DNA from: Candidatus Bathyarchaeia archaeon
GTDB lineage: Archaea > Thermoproteota > Bathyarchaeia > Bathyarchaeales > Bathycorpusculaceae
Direction of reading: 5' to 3'
Length of the DNA: 64,000 nt
Assembly: GCA_049969855.1 (NCBI GenBank)
Contig: JBMFOB010000001.1
Coordinates: 32,001-96,000, forward strand
The notes beneath the pieces are model-generated. The model was not told where the DNA came from. It saw nothing but the letters and a program-made list of their open reading frames with translations, and did not search any database. The position numbers and the translations under genes were made by a program. Shown here piece after piece: positions 3,809-54,158 of the stretch. Positions within the stretch are counted from its first letter, which is position 1. The number at the start of each line of letters is the position of its first letter.

Positions 3809-4735
3809 CTACAACCTTGTTATTAACGAACATACCATAATTGGAAGAATCAGCGAAGCATCACCCTCAACCATAACAGTGTCTGCTTTCTGGCTTATCT
3901 TCCCCCATGAAACCGCTTCTCGAGGTCTTGCGCCAGATAGGCTGCCGTCCCACTCATCAGCAGTACAAACATAAACTGCATAGTCCAATCCCTCTCTGAA
4001 CTGATTCCACCAAAGCGTATGATGCTTCGAAATTCCACCGCCAACAATTAATGCGCCAGTTTTCTTTGCAGTAAAAATAGTTTCGCTGAGTTCGCCAGAA
4101 TCCTTCAACAAGTTAACTTTAAAGTTGTGGTCTTGCGAAAAAAGCCAGAGCTGATAACCAACCGCTCCGTCTGTTATGCCAGGCACATAAACTGGTATGT
4201 TGTTTTTTGCCGCCCAATAAAGGATGGAGTTTTCGTTGCATATGCGTCTTCCAATTTCATGGCATAACTGGCGGGTTGATAATTCTTTGACGCCTTCCTC
4301 CCATAAAGTTTGAAGAAGCTCTTGCATTTTCTTTTCAATTATTATTCCATAACTTTCGTTTGGAACCAAAACATTTCCTAAACGGTTTATCTTTTTCCTA
4401 CGAAGCTCGGCATCGTCCATGAAAAATGAACCTTTATAATAGTTTTTCCAGCTTCTGGCAATATCATGGTCAAGAGTTCCGCAAGTTGTGATTATAACAT
4501 CAACAAGCTTCTCTTTTACAAGCTCCCTCAAAGCGCCTCTCGTTCCAGTGGCAACAAGATTGCCAGTGAAAGAAAGAAACTTTACACATTCACCATCCTT
4601 AATCATTCTTTCTAAAATGTTCACACCGACTGCCAATTTTCCAGCCGTAAAACCCCAAGCGTTATCCATCTGCAAAACAAGGTCGTTTACAGATATTCCC
4701 TTAAAGAGATTATAATCTTCAACCTTCTCCAACAC
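3809..4735 (-). CDS. dys: Deoxyhypusine synthase (paralog B, canonical archaeal type)
   Basis: FTGNLVATG, GGGISKHH, DGSLSGARPREAVSWGK with catalytic Lys. Confidence 0.93.
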   Translation of the reverse strand: MLEKVEDYNLFKGISVNDLVLQMDNAWGFTAGKLAVGVNILERMIKDGECVKFLSFTGNLVATGTRGALRELVKEKLVDVIITTCGTLDHDIARSWKNYYKGSFFMDDAELRRKKINRLGNVLVPNESYGIIIEKKMQELLQTLWEEGVKELSTRQLCHEIGRRICNENSILYWAAKNNIPVYVPGITDGAVGYQLWLFSQDHNFKVNLLKDSGELSETIFTAKKTGALIVGGGISKHHTLWWNQFREGLDYAVYVCTADEWDGSLSGARPREAVSWGKISQKADTVMVEGDASLILPIMVCSLITRL

Positions 4736-4802
4736 GCATTCTCATCTCCATAATCAAACTAAATTGTCATGTTAAAGATAAATAACTGTCGAACTTTTGA
4801 GG

Positions 4803-5681
4803 CTAATTAACCAAGTATGCTATGATTTTTTCATATACGTCTCTGTTTCTCAAGTCTTCGTTGCCAGCGTAAATGCTTGGGTTATCATTGACTTCCACCA
4901 CCACATAATTGCCGTTGAATTCTTTTATGTCAACTCCATAAAGCCCACGCCCAACAACTTCACAAGCCTTCAAAGCCGTTTCTTTCAATTTGGTTGGAGC
5001 ATTTTCCCTTTTAAGGGTCACAGTTCTTCCCCAAACAAAGCTTGGTTTGCCCCTCCTTTTTGCGCCGTGTTTCCATCTGCCCTTTGGCACCATGTACTTG
5101 CAAACATACAAAACTTCACCATTTAAGACGCCGACTCTCCAATCGAAAGCTGTTGGCATAAATTTCTGAACCGCCAAAACATCGGATCTCCTGAAAAATC
5201 TCTTCGCAACTTCTCTAAAACTTGTTTCACACGCCACTTTCTCCACATATCTCGAAAAACTTGTGTATGGCGCCTTCACCACAACAGGTCTTCCAAAAGT
5301 TTTGAAAATCTCAACTATCCGCTTATGATGCAGTTCATCCTTGCTTAGGAAAATTGTTGGAATATATGGAACATTATACTTTTTGAAAAGAGAGTACAAG
5401 TGAATCTTGTTTCCACAAATTTGTATGGATTTAGGGTCATCAACCACGTTTAAACCCATCTCCCAAGCAGCCTTAGAAACTATGTAGGCGGTGTAAAGGG
5501 GGTCTGTTGTAGCTCTAATGAAAACAGCGTCGTATTTCGGAATTTCCAACAGGTTTTCTCTAAACAAGAAGTTGAATGCATGACCCATTTTCTCCGCTGC
5601 AACTTTAAAGTTCTGTAACGCCAAAACCTCTTTAGGGTCTGAAAAATTGTATCTTTCAACAAAACATGCTATTCTAGACAA
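4803..5681 (-). CDS. RimK-family ATP-grasp ligase
   Basis: VFIRATT, VVDDPKSIQICGNK, FDWRVGVL, GLYGVDIK, VEVNDNPSI. Confidence 0.9.
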   Translation of the reverse strand: MSRIACFVERYNFSDPKEVLALQNFKVAAEKMGHAFNFLFRENLLEIPKYDAVFIRATTDPLYTAYIVSKAAWEMGLNVVDDPKSIQICGNKIHLYSLFKKYNVPYIPTIFLSKDELHHKRIVEIFKTFGRPVVVKAPYTSFSRYVEKVACETSFREVAKRFFRRSDVLAVQKFMPTAFDWRVGVLNGEVLYVCKYMVPKGRWKHGAKRRGKPSFVWGRTVTLKRENAPTKLKETALKACEVVGRGLYGVDIKEFNGNYVVVEVNDNPSIYAGNEDLRNRDVYEKIIAYLVN

Positions 5682-21831: not shown

Positions 21832-22260
21832 ATGCAGCCAAAAACACTAAAGGGAAGAAGAATCGTTGAGGGACACTGCAAAGCAGAAGCCCTCGTATCC
21901 AATAAACCAATAAGTTTTCTTGGAGGAGTAGACCCAGCTGACGGAAAAATAATAGAAAGAGACCACGATTTATATGGAGAGTGCATAAAGGATAAGGTTT
22001 TGTGTTTTCCAAATGGACACGGCTCAACAGTCGGTAGCTACGTGTTATATTCCTTAGCTAAGAAAAAATGTGCACCAAAAGCCATAATCAATCAGACCGC
22101 TGACCCTGTTGTTGTGGTTGGAGCCATAATAGCGAACATTCCCATGGTGGACCAAATAGACATTAAACAGATAACAACAGGCGATGTGGTTGAGGTTGAC
22201 GCATATAAGGGCTTTGTTAAAATTTGGAAAGGGAAAGGGGCAAAGCAAGCATGTATTTGA
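21832..22260 (+). CDS. Aconitase X swivel subunit (DUF126; phosphomevalonate dehydratase small subunit)
   Basis: PISFLGGVDP, GHGSTVGSYVLY; start moved to ATG 21832. Confidence 0.88.
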   Translation: MQPKTLKGRRIVEGHCKAEALVSNKPISFLGGVDPADGKIIERDHDLYGECIKDKVLCFPNGHGSTVGSYVLYSLAKKKCAPKAIINQTADPVVVVGAIIANIPMVDQIDIKQITTGDVVEVDAYKGFVKIWKGKGAKQACI

Positions 22261-23426
22261 CAAAGGAAGAAGAACACATATACGACGGCGAGTTTGGCTG
22301 GGCAAACGAAATATGCATGAAAATACTTGTCCGTCTGGGCGAACTTTTCAAAGCCTCAAAGCTTATTCCAATAAGTTCCTCCCATGTTTCAGGAGTTTCT
22401 TACAAAACCTTAGGGGATGCACCAACAGAATTCCTGAAAGCTCTGGCGGACGCTGGCGCAAAAGTAAAAGTTAAATCAACACTAAATCCTCAAAGCCTTG
22501 ATTGCGAATTTCTCTGCAAAAGGCTTCCATCCAATTTATGCGAAAAACAGTTGGATGTTCTGAATTATTTTGAGAAGATGGGTTTTACGCAATCATTGAC
22601 ATGCACGCCATACTATTTGGAAAAGCAAAAAAGAGGTGCTCATCTGGCATGGGCTGAATCATCCGCAGTGATTTATGCAAATTCTGTCATTGGAGCATGG
22701 ACAAACCGTGAAGGGGGACCAAGTGCTCTTGCAGCAGCAATAATAGGAAAAACACCAGATTATGGAATACACCAGCCTGAAAATAGACAACCAAAGGTTT
22801 TAGTGAAACTGGAAAAACCATTAACAAAAGAAATAGAGTTTGGCGCCCTGGGAATTTTTCTCGGCGAAATCTTGAAAGACGAAATTCCAATAATACAAGG
22901 TTTACAAAAAGCTTCAAAAGACAACCTAAAACAGTTGGGAGCAGCCCTCGCATCTGCTGGAATGACAAACATGTTCTACCATAAAGACACAAACACAAAA
23001 ATCAGCGAAGTTGAAAAGATAAACGTGCAAGCTGAAGACTTGAAAAGAACCATTGAAAAACTAATCACAACATCCACACAAAAACCAGACCTAATTTTTA
23101 TAGGATGCCCCCACTGTTCCCTAAATGAAATCAGACAAACAGCAGAGTGGATAGGCAATAGAAAAATCAAAAACAAAACAGAATTTTGGGTTTGCACATC
23201 ACACCACATAAAAGAAAAATCCAAAAAATATGTGGAAAAAATAGAAAAAAGCGGAGGTCACGTTCTCACGAACACATGTGCCGTTGTAACATGGACAGAA
23301 AAGCTAGGAATAAAAACAATAATGACAAACTCCGCAAAAACAGCCCATTATGCACCCACACTAAACAAGGCAGAAACAATACTTGCACCACTAAAAGAGT
23401 GCATAAAAAGAGCTTGTATGGGATAA
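22251..23426 (+). CDS. Aconitase X catalytic subunit (DUF521; phosphomevalonate dehydratase large subunit)
   Basis: MYLTKEEE, HVSGVSY, TCTPY, WAESSA, TNREGGPS, GCPH, TNSAK. Confidence 0.9.
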   Translation: MYLTKEEEHIYDGEFGWANEICMKILVRLGELFKASKLIPISSSHVSGVSYKTLGDAPTEFLKALADAGAKVKVKSTLNPQSLDCEFLCKRLPSNLCEKQLDVLNYFEKMGFTQSLTCTPYYLEKQKRGAHLAWAESSAVIYANSVIGAWTNREGGPSALAAAIIGKTPDYGIHQPENRQPKVLVKLEKPLTKEIEFGALGIFLGEILKDEIPIIQGLQKASKDNLKQLGAALASAGMTNMFYHKDTNTKISEVEKINVQAEDLKRTIEKLITTSTQKPDLIFIGCPHCSLNEIRQTAEWIGNRKIKNKTEFWVCTSHHIKEKSKKYVEKIEKSGGHVLTNTCAVVTWTEKLGIKTIMTNSAKTAHYAPTLNKAETILAPLKECIKRACMG

Positions 23427-23472
23427 GGTTTATTCGAGTGAAAAAGCATCTTGCATGATGCCACAAAAGAAA

Positions 23473-23547
23473 GCTCCGGTAGTATAGCCCGGTCAAGTAT
23501 TCCGGCCTTTCGAGCCGGAGACGCGGGTCCGAATCCCGCCCGGAGCA
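23473..23547 (+). tRNA. tRNA-Glu(TTC)
   Basis: GCTCCGG...CCGGC CT TTC GA GCCGG...GCGGG TCCGAAT CCCGC CCGGAGC A cloverleaf; T-loop reads TCC rather than TTC. Confidence 0.93.
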
Positions 23548-23691
23548 CTCCAAATCTGAGCGTATTTTAGGCGTATTTTGGTTAAAAAAGCTCAATTCGA
23601 GCAGTTTCTAAAAGAGGCTAAAATTAGAACACGAATTTACCGGCAAAAAATAATGCTACTAATAATCTACTATGAACTTTCATAACATAGT

Positions 23692-23967
23692 CTAGCATCG
23701 ATGTGTAGAATTTCTTAATAACTCTTTTGCTTCGCGATAATGGTATAAAAGCAATTTACCTTTCTCTGTTATTTCGTAAACCACACGGTTTTCTTGCTCA
23801 AGTTCCCTTATTAGATCCAACTTCATTAACAAGGTCATGTATTTTTGGAGTTGGCTAAAACTCACATTGGCTCTATACATTATATGCGTTTTTGTAATAG
23901 TCTTTCCTGTTTCAATAGCCTCTAAAATTTGAGCACATATTTCTAAGTGTGATCTTCGCATCGACAT
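23692..23967 (-). CDS. Winged HTH protein (HTH_45-like)
   Basis: RRSHLEI..ILE...KTHIMYRANVS...YEITEKG. Confidence 0.88.
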   Translation of the reverse strand: MSMRRSHLEICAQILEAIETGKTITKTHIMYRANVSFSQLQKYMTLLMKLDLIRELEQENRVVYEITEKGKLLLYHYREAKELLRNSTHRC

Positions 23968-24117
23968 TGTTGATTCCTTTTTCTTATAGAAGATAATTCA
24001 TTAACAATATTCTGTAATAGTGTTCCATAATGTTTATTATCAGAAAGCTTCTTTTAAACTTTTGCAGATAGTTCCTGGTCGGGATTATCTGTCAAGGTAC
24101 CATATTAAATATGTTGT

Positions 24118-25164
24118 TTATTTTAACAAGTTCTGAGTTTTTACTCTTAATTCTTTAACTGACAATATTTCTATATCAAACATATCTTTGAAGGAAGTTG
24201 CTCTTTTCTTAGACTCTTCTCCGGCGTATACGTATACATCGCCATCCCTTATCTTCCTTGAGTCCAGAGTTCTATCAAATCCTTGAAACGCCCCGCCCTT
24301 GGAACAAGCATATGCGGCAGCACTTACGATTGGTTCTCCACTAAGATCAGAAATACGTATTCCTTCAATGTCTATAAAAATTATGGGATGTGCAAGAAAG
24401 TTATCTGGAGGAATTTCTTGTTTGCTGTACCATCTAATTTTTGATAAAACTCCTTGATCAAGAAATCTTGTTTCAACAGGAAAATCGTAGTTTCCCCACA
24501 CCTCTTCTATGTTTTCGGGTGTTAGCCACAATTTTCTATCCCAAAGCTTTTTCTCCGTTAAATAAGTCAGCATATCCGCCACAGAAATAAACTCGTTGCA
24601 TTCATCACCCTTTGGATAGATTTTTGGAGTAGTGTGCTCTGTTAAATCGCGCCAAGCTGTAGTTTGTTTACTTGAAAAGCCATCTATTAAGTATATGTTA
24701 GTTTCTGATCGATGCCTGCCACTATACGACCATGCGGTTGTGTAAGAAAACATAGGAGTTAGAGAACGAAGAAATTTCATTGTAGGAATTTCTTCTATGG
24801 GACAACCATACCCTCCAACGGAGACTGATTTTATATCATTAGGTGGAAGGACCACATATGAACAAAAAATACTCTCAATAACATCTTGAAGTTCAGTCAC
24901 TATTTCATCACAAAATCTTATGGCTTTTGCATGACCTATTTCCTTCCATAGGGTGCTATGAGAATAAACAAGCCGTTTTGTTGGGACATTAAATTTCTTT
25001 ATAAGATTTTTCCGCGAATTATGATAATTTGATTTAAAATCTTCTTCTTTTCCGTTCTTAATAATCACGCCAATACCAAGAGGAGTGAAGAAAACTGTTT
25101 CTTTTTGTTCTTCAACTTTCTTCCAACGAGAAAATTCGCCGACATCAAAGGCTGCAATTGTCAT
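24118..25164 (-). CDS. Hypothetical protein, possibly RNase H-fold (DUF3800-like)
   Basis: N-terminal AAFDVGE, internal LIDG and ISVADML resemble the D-E..D..AD catalytic layout (inference). Confidence 0.6.
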   Translation of the reverse strand: MTIAAFDVGEFSRWKKVEEQKETVFFTPLGIGVIIKNGKEEDFKSNYHNSRKNLIKKFNVPTKRLVYSHSTLWKEIGHAKAIRFCDEIVTELQDVIESIFCSYVVLPPNDIKSVSVGGYGCPIEEIPTMKFLRSLTPMFSYTTAWSYSGRHRSETNIYLIDGFSSKQTTAWRDLTEHTTPKIYPKGDECNEFISVADMLTYLTEKKLWDRKLWLTPENIEEVWGNYDFPVETRFLDQGVLSKIRWYSKQEIPPDNFLAHPIIFIDIEGIRISDLSGEPIVSAAAYACSKGGAFQGFDRTLDSRKIRDGDVYVYAGEESKKRATSFKDMFDIEILSVKELRVKTQNLLK

Positions 25165-25231
25165 AATTTACATTGAGCTTTCCTTCAAAATAAATTTTTC
25201 ATTATTGAAATGAATGCCCAGTAACAGGGAT

Positions 25232-25320
25232 GTTTGAAAACCCAACTGCACTGAGCATATTTTGTGGTAAACTTGAGCGCAAATTCTGCTTCGGACATTC
25301 CAAATTAGAGCTTATTTTAG
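25232..25320 (+). repeat. att-like site 1 (degenerate)
   Basis: ATATTTTGTGGTAA, 13 nt, then TTCTGCTTCGGACATTCCAAAT (14/22 vs tRNA-Glu 3' end plus flank); the downstream flank resembles 23548-23625. Confidence 0.7.
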
Positions 25321-25424
25321 CCAACAAAGCTCGATTTTGGCAGTTTGTATGCTAGAAGCCCAAATAACAAGACTACAGTAAGCTTTAAGATTTCTATTGT
25401 TGGATTGAATATGGAGGTATTTGA

Positions 25425-26351
25425 ATGGCTGTAAGTAAGCTAAATCGAGTCCCAGTTCGTCAGGTTTGGAAAAATGAAGAAAAAGACTTTACGCCATGGC
25501 TTGCGAAGAATATTGAAATTCTAGGAGAAACTCTTGGAATGCCACTTTCCGTCGTGGAGAAGGAAACTGATGTAGGTGAATCTTTTGAGGCAGATATTCT
25601 TGCGGAAGGTAAGGATGGCATACCAGTGGTAATTGAAAATCAATTTGGGAAGACAGACCATGATCACTTAGGAAAACTAATTACATACTCCACAAACTTG
25701 GAGGCTAAAATAGCTATATGGATATGCGAAAATCCTCAACCAGAGCATGTAGCAGCAATTGATTGGTTAAACAAGAACACTTCAGGCGATATATCCTTTT
25801 ACTTAATCAAACTCGAAGCTTTCCAAATTAATGGTTCTCCGGTGGCACCACATTTTTCTATAATCTCTGAACCAAGCAAAGTAATAAGAGAAGCCGGCGA
25901 AATGAAAGAAGAGCTTGCAGAAAGACATATCAAAAGACTTGAGTTTTGGAGACAACTTTTAGAAAAAAGCAGTCTGGACATCTTCTCAAACGTGTCGCCC
26001 AGCAAGGATCACTGGATAGCAGCAGGCGCTGGTAAAAGCGGGCTCTCATACAATTATGTTATATTAATGAATTCTGCGAGGGTCGAGTTCTACATAAGTA
26101 CACCGGATGCTGCAAAGAATAAGAAAATATTTGACGAGCTGTATAAAAGAAGACAAGAGATTGAAAAAGACTTTGGTGAAGAGTTGGAATGGCAACGTCT
26201 CGATGACAAAACAGCGTCTCGTGTAGCAAAAACAGTTTCGCAAAAAGGATTGATGAATGTGGAGGAGTGGTCAGATATTCAAAGCAAAATGATTGACGCT
26301 ATGCGTAGACTTGAAAAAGCAATAAGCAAGCACATAAAAACAATAGGTTAG
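25425..26351 (+). CDS. DUF4268 protein with N-terminal PD-(D/E)xK-like nuclease domain
   Basis: VWKNEEKDFTPWL, ADIL...VIENQ, TDHDHLGKLITY; C-terminal EFW...ELEWQRL; GGAGG RBS. Confidence 0.85.
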   Translation: MAVSKLNRVPVRQVWKNEEKDFTPWLAKNIEILGETLGMPLSVVEKETDVGESFEADILAEGKDGIPVVIENQFGKTDHDHLGKLITYSTNLEAKIAIWICENPQPEHVAAIDWLNKNTSGDISFYLIKLEAFQINGSPVAPHFSIISEPSKVIREAGEMKEELAERHIKRLEFWRQLLEKSSLDIFSNVSPSKDHWIAAGAGKSGLSYNYVILMNSARVEFYISTPDAAKNKKIFDELYKRRQEIEKDFGEELEWQRLDDKTASRVAKTVSQKGLMNVEEWSDIQSKMIDAMRRLEKAISKHIKTIG

Positions 26352-26398
26352 GAACAGAAAAATAGAAAACCCATGAATAATAATATTAAACAATTAGA

Positions 26399-26486
26399 GT
26401 TTCAAACCCCGCAATGCTCAGAGATATTTTACTGGTAATTTCGTGCGCCGTTCCCGCCCGGAGCACTCCAAATTTAGGTTTATTTT
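26399..26486 (+). repeat. att-like site 2 (intact)
   Basis: TTTTACTGGTAA, 13 nt, then TCCCGCCCGGAGCACTCCAAAT (26452-26473), 22/22 identical to 23534-23555. Confidence 0.92.
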
Positions 26487-26531
26487 AAGCAGGTTTAGTG
26501 GCGAAATCCTCATTTGATTTAGAATTGGATA

Positions 26532-26783
26532 TTAGTAGACACGTTTGCGATGGCCCACAACTAACAAAAATACTTCATTTTTCTTAACTTGATAAAGAAC
26601 TCGGTAATCCCCTATTCTTAAAGAGTAAACGCCTTTCCATTCGCCGCGTAAAGGCTTTCCTACGTAAGGGTTAGTCTTTAATATTTTGATCTCTTGAAGT
26701 ATCCGTACTTGAATTTTTCTGTCTAAAGCTTCAATGTTCTTTAAGAAACGCGGCGTAAACCGAACTTCAAATTTCGCCTTCAA
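26532..26783 (-). CDS. RelE/ParE family toxin
   Basis: NPYVGKPLRG..YSLRIGDYRVLY..VGHRKRVY. Confidence 0.92.
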   Translation of the reverse strand: MKAKFEVRFTPRFLKNIEALDRKIQVRILQEIKILKTNPYVGKPLRGEWKGVYSLRIGDYRVLYQVKKNEVFLLVVGHRKRVY

Positions 26784-26976
26784 GGTTTAACTCTCTTACA
26801 AGCTCATCCAATGGTTTAGCCTTGCCCTCTTCAACCTCTCTTAAGGCAATCTTCAAATCTTTGACAAGTTTCTTGTCTTGCAGGACTTCAAGAGTTTCTA
26901 ATAGCTCATCCATTAAACTGGCAGCTTTTGTTAGCAGTTCTTTCTCTTCCGCTGTTAAAAGAGGCATACCTCTCAC
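26767..26976 (-). CDS. Cognate antitoxin (RelB/Phd C-terminal-like)
   Basis: Acidic ELLETLEVLQD..L..ALREVEEG; overlaps the toxin start. Confidence 0.8.
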   Translation of the reverse strand: MRGMPLLTAEEKELLTKAASLMDELLETLEVLQDKKLVKDLKIALREVEEGKAKPLDELVRELNLEGEI

Positions 26977-27045
26977 AAACCTTCAGAATATAAAATCTCC
27001 GCAGACATTTTAACTCTTACTCTTAAAATCGGATTAGCAAATGTG

Positions 27046-27086
27046 TTTACTGGTAATTTTGTGCGTCGTTTCCGTCCTGGGCACTC
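27046..27086 (+). repeat. att-like site 3
   Basis: TTTACTGGTAA, 13 nt, then TTCCGTCCTGGGCACTC (13/17 vs tRNA-Glu 3' end plus flank); collinear with site 2. Confidence 0.85.
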
Positions 27087-27091
27087 TGCTT

Positions 27092-28297
27092 TTATAGTAA
27101 TGTGCTTGCATTTTTTGCCAGCACGGGTATTTCGTTCTTTTTTATATTTATAAGATCAAGGTATTTCATAGCATTACCGGTTAAATACAAAAGCACACTT
27201 TCATTCTTATCAATTGCACCGTCGTTTCCAAGTTTGTTTAATGCTGGGAGGGGTGCGGAGGCTTCTGGACATGCATATATGCCGTTCTTGAGAAAAATTT
27301 TCATCGCGTTGATTATTTCTGTGTCATCTACTGCTACTGCCATGCCCTTCGTTTCCCTTATCGCCCGCAATACAAGATAGCTTGCGTAGGGACGGGGAAC
27401 CCTTAAACCCGCAGCTATAGTTTCAGCGTTTTCCCAAGCTTCTTTCACTTCCGCCTCTCCACTATTATATGCCTTGACTAATGGGGCACAACCAGAAGAT
27501 TGAACTATTATTAGGCGTGGAATCTTTTCCGTCCAGCCGAGCTCAATTAAATCTTTGAAACCTTTCCATAAACCTATGATTCCTTCGCCTCCGCCTGTCG
27601 GGAAAATTATGTTGTCTGGCAGATTCCAATTGAATTGTTCTGCGATTTCAAATGCCATGGCTTTGTAACCTTCGTATCTATATGGTTGCTTGTTAGTTGA
27701 AACGTCCAGCCATCCGTAATCTTTTCCAAATTTTTTCACCATTTCTGCGGCGTCATTTATCAAACCGTCAACAAGGTATACCTTGGCGCCCATGGAAATG
27801 CATTCTTTAATATTGCTTTCCGGCACATCTTTCGGCATAAAAACATAAACTTCCATTCCAGCCTTCGCTCCATAAGCAGCCAAAGCTGCAGCAGCATTTC
27901 CAGCAGACGGAAGGGCAACACGGTTTATGTTTAACTCTTTAAGTTTGGAAACTGCCACAGCCATACCTCTGGCTTTAAAGGTTCCAGTTGGAAGCCGCCC
28001 ATCATCCTTCAAAAACACGTTTGAAACTGCACTGTTATCTTTCCGAAATTGGAGTATAGGCGTATAGGGTTCTCCCAAAGAAACTATATTATCAGGCGAT
28101 GACAGCGGAAGTAATTCTTTGAACTTCCAAAACGTATCTGCTCTATTCTCTAAATCACGTTTAGAAATCTTCTTGGCAATTCTTGATAAATCATATTGGA
28201 ACAGAAGTGCTCCGCCACATTTTGGGCATATTGTTAAAATGTTGTCTGATGGGAAAACTTTTCCACATCTGCTACATTCAGCCCCAAGTATGAACAT
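27092..28297 (-). CDS. thrC: Threonine synthase-like PLP enzyme
   Basis: N-terminal CSRC/CPKC, LPTGTFKARG, SAGNA, PTGGGEG; substrate not certain. Confidence 0.8.
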   Translation of the reverse strand: MFILGAECSRCGKVFPSDNILTICPKCGGALLFQYDLSRIAKKISKRDLENRADTFWKFKELLPLSSPDNIVSLGEPYTPILQFRKDNSAVSNVFLKDDGRLPTGTFKARGMAVAVSKLKELNINRVALPSAGNAAAALAAYGAKAGMEVYVFMPKDVPESNIKECISMGAKVYLVDGLINDAAEMVKKFGKDYGWLDVSTNKQPYRYEGYKAMAFEIAEQFNWNLPDNIIFPTGGGEGIIGLWKGFKDLIELGWTEKIPRLIIVQSSGCAPLVKAYNSGEAEVKEAWENAETIAAGLRVPRPYASYLVLRAIRETKGMAVAVDDTEIINAMKIFLKNGIYACPEASAPLPALNKLGNDGAIDKNESVLLYLTGNAMKYLDLINIKKNEIPVLAKNASTLL

Positions 28298-51993: not shown

Positions 51994-52032
51994 CGCCGGA
52001 GAAGGGATTTCAACACCAATTTATCAGTAAAG
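51994..52032 (-). repeat. att-like site at the tRNA-Ser island boundary
   Basis: 51994-52009 matches the tRNA-Ser 3' end (54015-54030) at 15/16; the minus strand reads TTTTACTGATAA, 13 nt, TCCCTTCTCCGGCG. Confidence 0.8.
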
Positions 52033-52395
52033 AGTTCGACACCCTCCCGAGCTACCACAAAAACATTGCTTTTAACGTTATTCGCTGAATTGGCTTGCGA
52101 GAAATGGTTTATCAATTGTTTAAGCGCCGTTCCTAGATATTATATGACATTTCTTTTGTTTTTCATTTGGCAAAAATTCAGTCTTTGAACCCTAGGGAAA
52201 GGGGATAATTGCTGAAGCTAAGATTCCCTTGCTGCAATCATGGAGAAGTAACCGTTAGCAAAATGTTTAACTCTTAAAAAGGCGAAGTTTAATGGTTAAG
52301 CAACTGACTGTGTTGGAGGCGCGTCACCATTTATGGATAAAGAAATCCCAGAAAGAGAATATAGCGCGAAAGGGAAAGTATCTAGGTTTGAGTAG

Positions 52396-52983
52396 GTGTT
52401 AAAAGTGGATGATAAAATCGGTCTCGGTAGCATGGTTGGAATAGGAATGATGTGCGTGATGCTTGGATTTCTAGGTTGGCTACATGCTAACTTCTTGTTC
52501 GAAAGATTAAGTTACGTGTTTGGATTTGTGGGAATAGACACCAGCCATTATATATCCGCCGACCTTGGTGAAATAATGCGGATTTATGTGGGCTTTATTA
52601 TAACTGGGTGTGTGTTTCTATTCTTTGGTTCTTTAGGAATAAAAAAGAAATTGAAGAACAACACAATCAATCTAGGAATTACACTGGTTCTTGGTCCGAC
52701 CCTTGCGTTTCTAGGCGTAATCAATTGGGTTGATTTGAGCTTCTATATGCTGGGTTTAATGTTCGTGCTTATGAGCGTTTCATTCACAAAATACAGGGCA
52801 TATGCCAAATACTATGTTCCCGCGATCCTGATTTGCGGAGTCATAATTACAATGTTGGGGTACCATCTTTTACACGCCATACACTGCGGGCTTGTCTATG
52901 CGACAGGTATAAGCGTGCTTGCTAGTGGAGTGATTAACCTTATCTTAGTCGAGAAAACTAGAGAGAAAGGTCTTTTCAGCTAA
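52396..52983 (+). CDS. Multi-pass membrane protein
   Basis: About 6 hydrophobic segments. Confidence 0.7.
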   Translation: MLKVDDKIGLGSMVGIGMMCVMLGFLGWLHANFLFERLSYVFGFVGIDTSHYISADLGEIMRIYVGFIITGCVFLFFGSLGIKKKLKNNTINLGITLVLGPTLAFLGVINWVDLSFYMLGLMFVLMSVSFTKYRAYAKYYVPAILICGVIITMLGYHLLHAIHCGLVYATGISVLASGVINLILVEKTREKGLFS

Positions 52984-53047
52984 AAATGGGAAAGAATGCA
53001 ACCACAACCGTAATAAGCTGACCAGTAGAACTCAATAAGAGGGTTGC

Positions 53048-53320
53048 ATGAAATATACAAAACACGCAAAAGCCAGAGCAGCTGAAAGGGGTATAACTGA
53101 GGACATGATTTTGGAAGCGATATTGCAACCCTCCCAGACATATTATGACTTAAGCACTGGAACAACAATCGTCTTCAAGAAGCTTAATGGGAAGTATCTT
53201 TTAGTAGCATACTCTAAAGAGAATAAGGAAATCAAAATTGTAACAACGTTTATAACATCAAACGCCCAAGAAATAATTAGCAGAAAACTGGAAAGCAGAA
53301 CATGGGTGAGGATTAAGTGA
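53048..53320 (+). CDS. DUF4258 putative toxin (RelE/BrnT-like fold)
   Basis: YTKHAKARAAERGI, L.VAY...IKIVT. Confidence 0.85.
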   Translation: MKYTKHAKARAAERGITEDMILEAILQPSQTYYDLSTGTTIVFKKLNGKYLLVAYSKENKEIKIVTTFITSNAQEIISRKLESRTWVRIK

Positions 53321-53538
53321 AAGTGGAATATGACAGAGAATCCGACATATTATACATAAAGTTTAAAGAGTCAGAAATAGCAGATACTAAAATATTAGGT
53401 GAAGACGCCTACATAGACTTAGACAAAGACGGAAACCTAGTTGGCATAGAAATATGGAAAGCCTCCCAAAACGCCATACTCCCAATATCAAAAGACATAG
53501 CCGAAAAACTAAAACTAATTTTAGAAAACCCCGCCTAA
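53317..53538 (+). CDS. DUF2283 putative antitoxin
   Basis: YDRESDILYI, DLDKDGNLVGIEI; 4-nt overlap with the toxin. Confidence 0.88.
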   Translation: MKVEYDRESDILYIKFKESEIADTKILGEDAYIDLDKDGNLVGIEIWKASQNAILPISKDIAEKLKLILENPA

Positions 53539-53610
53539 AGCAAAATAAAAGCCTTCCAACAAAATCTAAATTAATTCTCAACCGCTAAACGCTAACTTCT
53601 AGATTTTTGA

Positions 53611-53636
53611 TTTCTGTTAGCGTCTCCTAACAGAAA
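53611..53636. terminator. Perfect 10-bp inverted repeat (terminator or operator)
   Basis: TTTCTGTTAG-cgtctc-CTAACAGAAA downstream of the TA pair. Confidence 0.4.
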
Positions 53637-54014
53637 ATGCTTAAATAAAAGTGGAGTGAGTTGTGCAAAAAGGTTTGTTATTACATATTGAGGTTGACTT
53701 TGTCTACCCTTAAGGATTTATCGATAATAGTGATATTTTCTTGGAAGCCTAGTTCAAGTCCACATAGGCTCTTGTTTCTTAAACATAGCGATGTCTGGAG
53801 TGGCGGAATCTTTCTGTTAGTCGCTGTTAAGGGAATTTAAAACCATGAGAAAGTCTTCTGTAAGGGTTAAATGCTATTGGGGAAGTTGTTGTAAGAACTT
53901 ACAGCAAGCCACAACCAGATTCAAGTTTACTATTTCAATAAATCTCATTATACGCTCTAAAAAAAGGCTATTTATCAAAACAAAGCGCAAAATTAACCCA
54001 AAACGTTAAAATGA

Positions 54015-54134
54015 CGCCGGGGAAGGGATTCGAACCCTTGCGAGCCCGAAGGCCCACTGGCTTACCTGTTCTCATCTAGCCCTTCTTTCAATTTGATCTC
54101 GAGGCCAGCGCGTTAACCGCTCCGCCACCCCGGC
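54015..54134 (-). tRNA. tRNA-Ser(CGA) with approx. 35-nt intron in the anticodon loop
   Basis: GCCGGGG...CTGGC CT CGA G [intron about 54063-54097] A GCCAG, long variable arm GGGCCTTCGGGCTC, GGTTCGAATCC. Confidence 0.92.
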
Positions 54135-54158
54135 GAAAGGAATTAGTTGTTTGTCTTC

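Follow-up and report, generated by a model that had tools for sequence, protein, structure and literature searches.

Positions 23534 to 27086 of the stretch of DNA studied here probably hold a tandem array of three small, nonautonomous integrative cassettes that are docked at the 3′ end of a tRNA-Glu(UUC) gene and whose recombinase would be supplied in trans. The whole stretch (hereafter the window; 64,000 nucleotides) lies on a 134-kb contig, C1, of a Bathyarchaeia metagenome-assembled genome (MAG; 1.28 Mb in 49 contigs, 93% completeness, 3.8% contamination). We judge it very likely that site-specific insertion at the tRNA gave rise to the array, and we also favor, with considerably less assurance, mobilization of the cassettes in trans. 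According to the mechanism that we propose, a circular cassette would recombine with the core of the tRNA gene through strand exchange of the tyrosine-recombinase type, which would restore the tRNA and leave a copy of the core at the far end, and repeated events would stack cassettes one behind the other. Because the cassettes encode no recombinase, the enzyme would have to come in trans, provided either by another element or by the host.

Copies of the tRNA-Glu 3′ end delimit three units

A preliminary description of this DNA had reported that the tRNA-Glu 3′ end recurs at positions 25284, 26452, and 27070, and we found these copies with the identities given there. The 22-mer TCCCGCCCGGAGCACTCCAAAT is exact at 23534 and 26452, for which the chance expectation is 0.00 (100 shuffles), and partial copies, as counted on the sequence, occur at 25284 (14/22) and 27070 (13/17). 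Start-to-start spacings of 1750, 1168, and 618 bp agree with the units of about 1.75, 1.17, and 0.62 kb that had been proposed. Each copy outside the tRNA is preceded, exactly 13 nt ahead, by an arm of the sequence TTTGTGGTAA or TTTACTGGTAA, and the earlier reading of this arm as TTT(AC/G)TGGTAA is likewise correct. Three matches to the joint pattern TGGTAA-N13-TYCYGYYY, which was composed post hoc after the sites had been seen, are present in the window against 0.05 expected; they are these three sites, and none of 100 shuffles reached three. Note that the 11-mer arm by itself is not significant: it has two matches where 0.40 would be expected, and 7 of 100 shuffles gave at least as many.

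The recombination core corresponds to the last ~15 to 22 nt of the tRNA-Glu gene, from 23534 onward, and the gene itself is intact according to both ARAGORN and Rfam. Four sites, A to D, can be laid out along the array (Table 1). Site A has the order tRNA-core-P′, sites B and C have the order P-core-P′, and site D has P-core followed by the flank of an empty site, an arrangement that fits tandem integration. The sequence behind site D (TGCTTTTATAG...) is found immediately downstream of the tRNA in another genome of the same genus (G049), whose site is empty. Only the tRNA site (A) and site C are intact, whereas B and D have decayed. The G+C content is 0.35 to 0.38 in the units and 0.40 to 0.42 in the flanks.

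Table 1. Features of the array at tRNA-Glu and its chromosomal flanks, in window positions. L numbers denote loci in other genomes or contigs.
Feature	Position	Strand	Support
Aconitase X (AcnX), left chromosomal flank	22224..23426	+	PF04412, 7.1e-138; syntenic in 5 relatives
tRNA-Glu(UUC), anchor (attL)	23473..23548	+	ARAGORN; Rfam RF00005, 61.5 bits
P′ arm of site A, ~101 nt	23549..23649	+	Conserved behind tRNA in L010 and L012
Inverted arm copy CACGAATTTACCGGCAAAAA, end of site-A P′ arm	23630-23649		Sequence search
Unit 1, gene 1: winged-helix protein (HTH_45/Sso10a family)	23692..23967	-	PF14947, 3.6e-20; NF053610, 6.7e-22
Unit 1, gene 2: 348-aa protein, RNase H-like (RNase HII-like) fold	24118..25164	-	AlphaFold2 pLDDT 95; Foldseek
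Site B, decayed junction	25261..25355	+	Arm TTTGTGGTAA 25261-25270, 13 nt, core copy 25284-25305 (14/22), degenerate P′ arm
Unit 2: DUF4268 protein, PADLOC candidate defense protein PDC-S11	25425..26351	+	PF14088, 4.1e-36; PDLC04914, 5e-118
Site C, intact junction	26428..26510	+	Arm TTTACTGGTAA 26428-26438, exact core 26452-26473, shortened P′ arm
Unit 3: toxin, RelE/ParE family	26532..26783	-	PF05016, 1.3e-14; TIGR02385, 1.7e-10
Unit 3: putative antitoxin, 69 aa	26767..26976	-	17-nt overlap with toxin gene
Site D (attR), decayed	27046..27086	+	Arm TTTACTGGTAA 27046-27056, core copy 27070-27086 (13/17)
Pyridoxal phosphate-dependent enzyme (ThrC-like), right chromosomal flank	27092..28297	-	PF00291, 9.5e-69; syntenic in L010, L012, L045, L046, L129

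The sites are built from an attachment module of ~170 bp

The repeated sequences are parts of a larger attachment (att) module of ~170 bp, which we defined from 22 further sites in related genomes together with 15 aligned metagenome junctions. It comprises a palindromic arm (P), a core with two inverted half-sites, and a P′ arm that includes an inverted copy of the arm, and the cargo is positioned between this inverted copy and the next arm. The arm is an AT-rich palindrome with the family consensus TTTTTACTAGTAAAAA, of which TTTACTGGTAA is the window version. The left half-site, GTGCKCCG(W), falls inside the 13 nt between arm and core copy (within 26439-26451 at site C, whose arm and core are also found in other genera). 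The core center is TCCCGSC. The right half-site, CGGAGCAC, mirrors the left one as an inverted repeat and coincides with the 3′ strand of the acceptor stem of the tRNA; the right half and the center of the core are the tRNA's own 3′ end. The P′ arm is ~100 nt long, has the consensus start CAATTTNAGGCTTATTTTGGGCGTATTTTGGTTAAAAAAGC, and closes with the inverted copy of arm and half-site. Both motifs of the bipartite site in the preliminary description are therefore real, but they belong to this longer module, and the 13 nt, which contain the left half-site, are more than a neutral spacer.

Two inverted half-sites around a 7- to 8-bp center are the layout of tyrosine-recombinase cores, and the core described here would accordingly be of the tyrosine-recombinase type. 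The core follows its target, with TCCCGCC at tRNA-Glu(UUC) and TCCCGGC at an intron-bearing tRNA-Glu(CUC). The stretch that joins the arm to the half-site differs between the two arm copies in a conserved manner, reading AAAC, AAAG, or ATTC on one side and CGCG or CGTG on the other, and this conserved difference favors a role of the arm copies in protein binding over one as a DNA hairpin. When 15 P-core-P′ junctions were aligned, the module proved common to all of them and was followed by complete divergence. An Rfam scan for an RNA gene in the P′ arm gave only the tRNA. The best-preserved module that we encountered (L088, 4040-4210) has a P′ arm that closes with a near-complete inverted arm, a half-site, and part of a core (GGTCGCGCCGGGATTGGCGCACGAATTTACTAGCAAAAA); a tRNA-Glu gene was not found on its 12-kb contig.

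Occupancy of the locus differs among relatives

The chromosomal context AcnX-tRNA-Glu-thrC could be followed in relatives whose records are titled Bathyarchaeia or Bathyarchaeota, and its occupancy varies among them. The site is empty in G049 (L045), where the tRNA leads directly into the thrC flank; two contigs overlap there by 55 nt inside the tRNA, and one of them runs from the tRNA to thrC. Only the RelE unit is present in L010 and L012, whose AcnX is 90% and 82% identical, respectively, to that of the window, and the toxin of L012 is truncated. Additional arrangements include the RelE/antitoxin pair with a 444-aa open reading frame (ORF) in L046, and a cassette for a 596-aa HD-domain protein with only a remnant of the antitoxin in L129, a metagenome contig that shares 93% DNA identity with the window in its thrC-M32 flank. 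Directly behind the tRNA of L013 and L014 comes the gene for the M32 peptidase. The comparison across relatives that the preliminary description had recommended thus yielded empty sites, single units, and other cargo; gene order is not identical in all relatives, nor do the relatives present the units as remnants of an integrase-bearing element.

These occupancies also bear on the simplest reading of the repeats, namely that the tRNA flank was duplicated locally and that no mobile element was involved. Direct repeats alone could arise in this way. However, the reading is scarcely credible, because it is refuted by the empty and alternative occupancies, because many genera contain the module, as do at least 120 metagenome contigs, and because the cargo is unrelated between units.

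Logan contigs (assembled contigs, not reads) from sequencing runs of three other studies, X2, X3, and X4, provide further arrangements. Units 1 and 2 are contained in a single piece of 2.2 to 2.8 kb in X3 and X4, whereas X2 has them as pieces that overlap, and in all three runs these pieces terminate at att modules. Junction B (25203-25355) is replaced by 146 other letters in contigs of these three runs. Joints from 23640 to 26536 (X3, X4) and from 23547 to 26535 (X1) place the RelE cassette directly behind the P′ arm or the tRNA, and it is the X1, X3, and X4 contigs with these joints that have the higher depth. The contigs of X1 to X4 show alternative forms in nature, not excision within one strain. 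Units 1 and 2 are one composite of ~2.9 kb, and unit 3, with the RelE/antitoxin pair, is old and shared within the genus. Because units 1 and 2 occur as one block in other samples, we think that they came together as a composite whose inner junction was already dead, as would result from the accretion and mobilization of att-flanked elements.

The joint at 23640 falls inside the inverted arm copy, and the extra DNA of the window starts in this case at the arm rather than at the tRNA core. This leaves room for crossover at a second site and keeps alive, at low odds, a reading in which the units are cargo-carrying nonautonomous transposons with terminal inverted repeats, a transposase encoded elsewhere, and a preferred target near tRNA-Glu. 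Inverted repeats of 18 to 31 nt do flank the cargo (18 nt, 83% complementary, in L012; 31 nt, 71%, in L010). Nevertheless, we judge a transposon to be improbable on several grounds. The duplication consists of 15 to 22 nt of the tRNA 3′ end and not of a short fixed target site, and insertions add an asymmetric stretch of ~85 nt between the core and the left arm. Moreover, the core covaries with the tRNA isoacceptor, and the two arm copies differ in the conserved, site-specific way noted above. Finally, many insertion sites would be expected of a transposon, whereas the module was found at only three places in its own genome (this locus, a second tRNA locus, and contig C23).

The RelE/antitoxin cassette is conserved beyond its flanks

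The preferred reading, integrative cassettes at a tRNA, gains from the behavior of unit 3 across genera. In L049, L051, L055, and L113, the DNA of the RelE and antitoxin genes is 85 to 91% identical to the window copies, whereas AcnX or M32 at the same loci reaches only 69 to 75% identity. In the close relative L010, by comparison, all genes are near 89 to 95% identical. The P′ arm of site A differs from that of an internal junction of L049, which belongs to another genus, at 4 of ~101 positions (96% identity). A cassette so much better conserved than its flanks points to horizontal movement of the RelE/antitoxin pair across genera. The 0.65-kb unit consisting of P′ arm, toxin-antitoxin pair, and arm has thus passed from genus to genus although it encodes no integrase.

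One module carries diverse cargo throughout Bathyarchaeia

Among the 301 genomes of the family, 62 contain a match to a pattern of arm plus core that tolerates up to two mismatches. The tRNA itself accounts for most of these matches, and by our reading of the table ~25 are true arm-core sites, which are spread over many genera. With a stricter pattern, 11 stretches were recovered among 185,579 species genomes, and all 11 carry titles that name Bathyarchaeia, Bathyarchaeota, or Bathyarchaeales. The att pattern had no match in viral contigs, and at least 120 matches to the stricter pattern were obtained from metagenome contigs, of which 80 loci were retrieved. A P′ profile located the P′ arm behind 30 of 88 arm-core (P-core) sites and behind 28 of 47 tRNA-Glu ends, and arrays are therefore common. 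The scan of the genome and of related MAGs proposed in the preliminary description has in this way revealed a large family with one att module and diverse cargo.

Tandem examples are provided by L050/L070, L125 (three units), and L049/L075. In L050/L070, an MNT-type nucleotidyltransferase with a 94-aa, putatively HEPN-like partner is followed by a RelE-like pair. Recognizable bounding sites enclose 36 units of 657 to 5749 bp, the long ones of which hold further degenerate junctions. Their 104 cargo ORFs of at least 60 aa fall into 73 clusters, and the RelE/antitoxin gene pair recurs in nine att-bounded units. Among 30 large cargo representatives examined with Pfam, defense-like or related families include HD and HD-associated domains, a STAND-type ATPase with TPR, OLD-like TOPRIM, CHAT, and nucleotidyltransferase, and accessory families include ChrB_C, PadR, EamA, ABC transporter, FMN reductase, flavodoxin, SnoaL-like, DUF952, and others. 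Cargo functions thus extend beyond defense and toxin-antitoxin activity. The idea of a defense and toxin-antitoxin cassette system holds insofar as such genes are present, but transporters, redox proteins, regulators, and large secreted proteins are carried as well.

Many contigs of MAGs and metagenomes end at, or within ~100 nt of, a tRNA-Glu or an arm-core site (L011, L045, L052, L053, L057, L064, and contig C34 of the genome under study). The module explains assembly breaks at tRNA-Glu in these genomes, and because a repeated module breaks assemblies, arrays will be under-represented in MAGs.

The cassettes lack a recombinase

No match to the tyrosine integrase family PF00589 is present on the whole of contig C1; the six matches in the genome all lie on other contigs. 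None of the five array ORFs belongs to a recombinase family according to Pfam, and tblastn of seven integrases against 23400-27200 gave a best E value of 2.1 and no integrase remnant, in agreement with the earlier statement that the units encode no recombinase. The same is true of the wider family. Searches with phmmer and five integrases gave no match in the 36 att-bounded units, the 30 large cargo representatives contain no recombinase family by Pfam, and no integrase similarity indicative of SSV-type Int(N)/Int(C) halves was found in the array or in the 36 units. In five genomes with P-arm sites, no PF00589 match lies within ~30 kb of the sites, and G036 is without any match.

Several findings weigh against an array of cassettes served by a recombinase in trans. 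The att module could not be linked to any recombinase. When all ORFs of 25 + 91 loci were searched by phmmer with five integrases of the genome itself, an integrase was found beside a P-core site in only two of the 91 loci (a full gene in L136, a partial one in L115), so the co-occurring tyrosine recombinase that the preliminary description had hoped for did not emerge. The arm palindrome was not found beside the integrases of the window's own genome. An excised circle was also not seen: a terminal direct repeat of at least 15 nt occurs in none of the 91 oriented loci, a test that could only register on whole short contigs, and there is no go-back joint among the joints listed, with contigs being unable to show rare forms. 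Hence, the circular junctions suggested as a check are absent from the contigs. The order of events is unclean as well, because junction B, which is expected to be the youngest, is the most decayed, and because the P′ arm of site C is shortened while that of site A matches L010. Even if the system is still active today, as it may be, the decay of sites B and D suggests that most of this array may now be fixed. The proposal of accretion by a trans-acting recombinase stands in part, insofar as the units are att-bounded, integrase-less, and variable between relatives.

The C12-type integrase gene of L136, which lies 490 nt before an arm-core site, was considered as a partner and rejected. It is a chromosomal gene beside rpoH, and homology with G090 stops ~100 nt behind the gene. 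Its adjacency to the site is not kept in G090, the closest relative, which is without the cassette. A scan of the genome for every copy of a tRNA 3′ end was too noisy for use.

Integrase fragments are located just outside some arrays (L070, L096, L099, L114) and likewise speak against cassettes mobilized in trans. All these arrays are at tRNA-Glu(CUC). The fragments are short ORFs with similarity to Zn-ribbon-type integrases (C36/C15 type) in the C-terminal or middle region of the latter, and they lie at 1659-1856 in L070 and just behind the last arm-core site in L096, L099, and L114. Integrase-bearing elements consequently did use these sites. This leads to an account of gene capture by decay, in which each unit is the remnant of an autonomous element whose own integrase was deleted after integration, with nothing mobilized in trans. 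Both integrase loss after integration and tandem integration are on record in archaea (PMC8371274, PMC6563490). In L115, moreover, a C12-type integrase gene ends 13 nt behind the arm-core (P-core) site, and the decay of window sites B and D is in keeping with such a history. We nevertheless consider decay unlikely. Neither an integrase nor a fragment of one is present in any of the 36 units, and 15 junctions have the same boundary between module and cargo although their cargo is unrelated; for deletions that occurred independently, different end points would be expected. In addition, the 0.65-kb RelE cassette with both its arms is 85 to 91% identical across genera while its flanks are at 69 to 75%, so that it must have spread as an integrase-less unit.

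A further integrase, of the Zn-ribbon type, is seen at L054/L073 (G119:C30), where it adjoins an intron-bearing tRNA-Ser and is separated by 2.3 kb from a tRNA-Glu-type arm-core site. Synteny shifts from C25-like to C1-like across this stretch, a pattern suggestive of chromosomal rearrangement between elements that had integrated at two separate tRNA genes.

Relation to known integrative systems

Cis-mobilizable elements (CIMEs), known together with the accretion of site-specific islands from Streptococcus and other bacteria, are att-flanked and integrase-less, stand in tandem at one attachment site, and can move as a composite in one piece. The units of the window resemble them in being att-flanked, in having functional-looking sites A and C, and in lacking recombination genes. 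They differ in being archaeal, in their much smaller size of 0.65 to 3 kb, in their conserved ~170-bp att module with defined boundaries, and in that no autonomous partner was found beside the units. The terms CIME and accretion occur in two reviews (PMC5704250, PMC7563491).

Tandem islands that are made by tyrosine integrases and have a repeated small-RNA 3′ end at their boundaries have been described for the ssrA islands of Dehalococcoides (PMC3146451) and among Islander islands (PMC4383910). The array shares with these tRNA and tmRNA islands the direct repeat of the RNA-gene 3′ end at the far boundary, the stacking, and an empty attB in a relative, whereas the islands of those reports carry their own integrase as a rule and none of the 36 units here does. 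Archaeal integrated elements with SSV-type or pNOB8-type integrases are known for tRNA targets, tandem integration, and decay (PMC8371274, PMC6563490, PMC7253208). In contrast to these, the units are not bordered by the two halves of a split integrase gene. Of the cryptic integrated elements that PMC6563490 names, the smallest measures 2.6 kb and has an integrase, whereas the units described here extend down to 0.65 kb without one.

The preliminary description had likened the accretion of cassettes to an integron. Both indeed have small cassettes in arrays, and in both the cargo is very diverse, with an abundance of toxin-antitoxin and defense genes; integron arrays without an adjacent integrase are still open to action in trans (PMC9668308). 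It might therefore be supposed that the array is a classical integron cassette array that lacks an integrase (a cluster of attC sites lacking integron-integrases, or CALIN), as reported for archaeal MAGs. Its short, promoter-less-looking cassettes and the prevalence of toxin-antitoxin and defense genes, as in archaeal integrons (PMC9668308), would agree with that. We regard this as highly improbable, and the likeness to an integron did not survive the comparison of parts. GTTRRRY occurs at none of the four junctions (one RYYYAAC is present near site B), so the sites are not attC, the recombination core is a tRNA 3′ end, and the anchor is a tRNA gene, not attI. Cassettes and their genes point both ways, on both strands, and share neither an orientation nor a promoter; the array has no adjacent IntI, and contig C1 has no integrase. 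The main text of PMC9668308 contains neither "Bathyarchae" nor "tRNA".

Tandem tRNA islands, CIMEs, integrase loss after integration, and CALINs are already known. What is new is the combination of very small archaeal cassettes, a long and sharp-edged att module, very diverse cargo, and class-wide spread without a linked integrase. Word searches of the open-access literature, supplements excluded, found no description of such arrays in Bathyarchaeia.

A broader proposal, which we advance tentatively and hold to be possible rather than probable, is that Bathyarchaeia own a dedicated system of gene capture, analogous to integrons in function but made of different parts: docking at a tRNA, the ~170-bp module as the counterpart of attC, and a recombinase encoded elsewhere that shuffles the cassettes. 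Such a system would dock at tRNA-Glu and at some other tRNA genes and would use free-standing cassettes down to 0.65 kb. Its recombinase would be host-borne or carried on a rarely assembled element, cassettes would be shuffled between genomes, and the outcome would be variable arrays of defense, toxin-antitoxin, and accessory genes.

Bathyarchaeia are abundant, uncultured archaea of sediments and hot springs, and their mobile elements are barely known. If the reading is true, a cassette family without a recombinase, with one docking module and diverse cargo, would be a route of archaeal gene exchange that current tools have missed, given that tools that seek integrases, attC sites, or transposases would not find these cassettes. 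The defined att module offers a handle with which to catalog the cassette pool of metagenomes and to fish for the recombinase, and it may possibly be usable as a site-specific insertion tool for archaea.

Cargo of the window units and additional loci

The gene content given in the preliminary description was borne out by Pfam and PADLOC, and for the RNase H-like gene by a weak fold match. This 348-aa protein has 68 homologues. Its model, which is confident (pLDDT 95), has weak matches to archaeal RNase HII as the top Foldseek results, with an E value of 3.7e-4, a template modeling (TM) score of 0.32 by query and 0.49 by target, and 14% identity; "RNase H-like" is thus a fair label for the predicted fold only. 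The ORF has no Pfam match in the profile set searched, which did not include PF26630, the family precomputed for its homologues. Relatives of the protein are scattered over Bathyarchaeia, Methanoperedens, Methanomassiliicoccales, and others. Unit 1 was considered as a conserved two-gene module and rejected, since 13 loci of the 348-aa family in other archaea are without the winged-helix partner and without the arm; two of the 13 have a tRNA in reach, and neither is tRNA-Glu.

The protein of unit 2 matches PDC-S11 over its full length in PADLOC. Unit 3 fits the features of type II toxin-antitoxin systems, with a RelE/ParE-fold toxin and a small, overlapping upstream partner; a profile search gave no family match for the 69-aa putative antitoxin.

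The third module in the same genome (G000) is on contig C23 at 4675-4803. It has the arm TTTACTGGTAAA and a different tRNA-like core end (AATCCCACTCAGCAC), and another arm follows after 117 nt; a tRNA and an integrase were not found on C23. Contig C34 (L003) of the same MAG carries a second, diverged AcnX, 66% identical at the protein level, with a tRNA-Glu, and ends 67 nt behind this tRNA. Contig C38 similarly resembles part of C2 in diverged form, and the C34 and C38 copies are likely a second related strain or species that was binned together with the first.

The second tRNA locus with a module lies within the window at 51994-54135 on the minus strand. An intron-bearing tRNA (54013-54135), assigned by ARAGORN -i as tRNA-Thr(CGT), is followed over ~2 kb by a pair of 90-aa and 73-aa genes, a putative toxin-antitoxin pair of the DUF4258/DUF2283 type, and then by a 195-aa membrane ORF. 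The locus is closed near 51994-52033 by an arm and core (TCTTTACTGATAAATTGGTGTTGAAATCCCTTCTCCGGCG), and this core copies the 3′ end of that tRNA.

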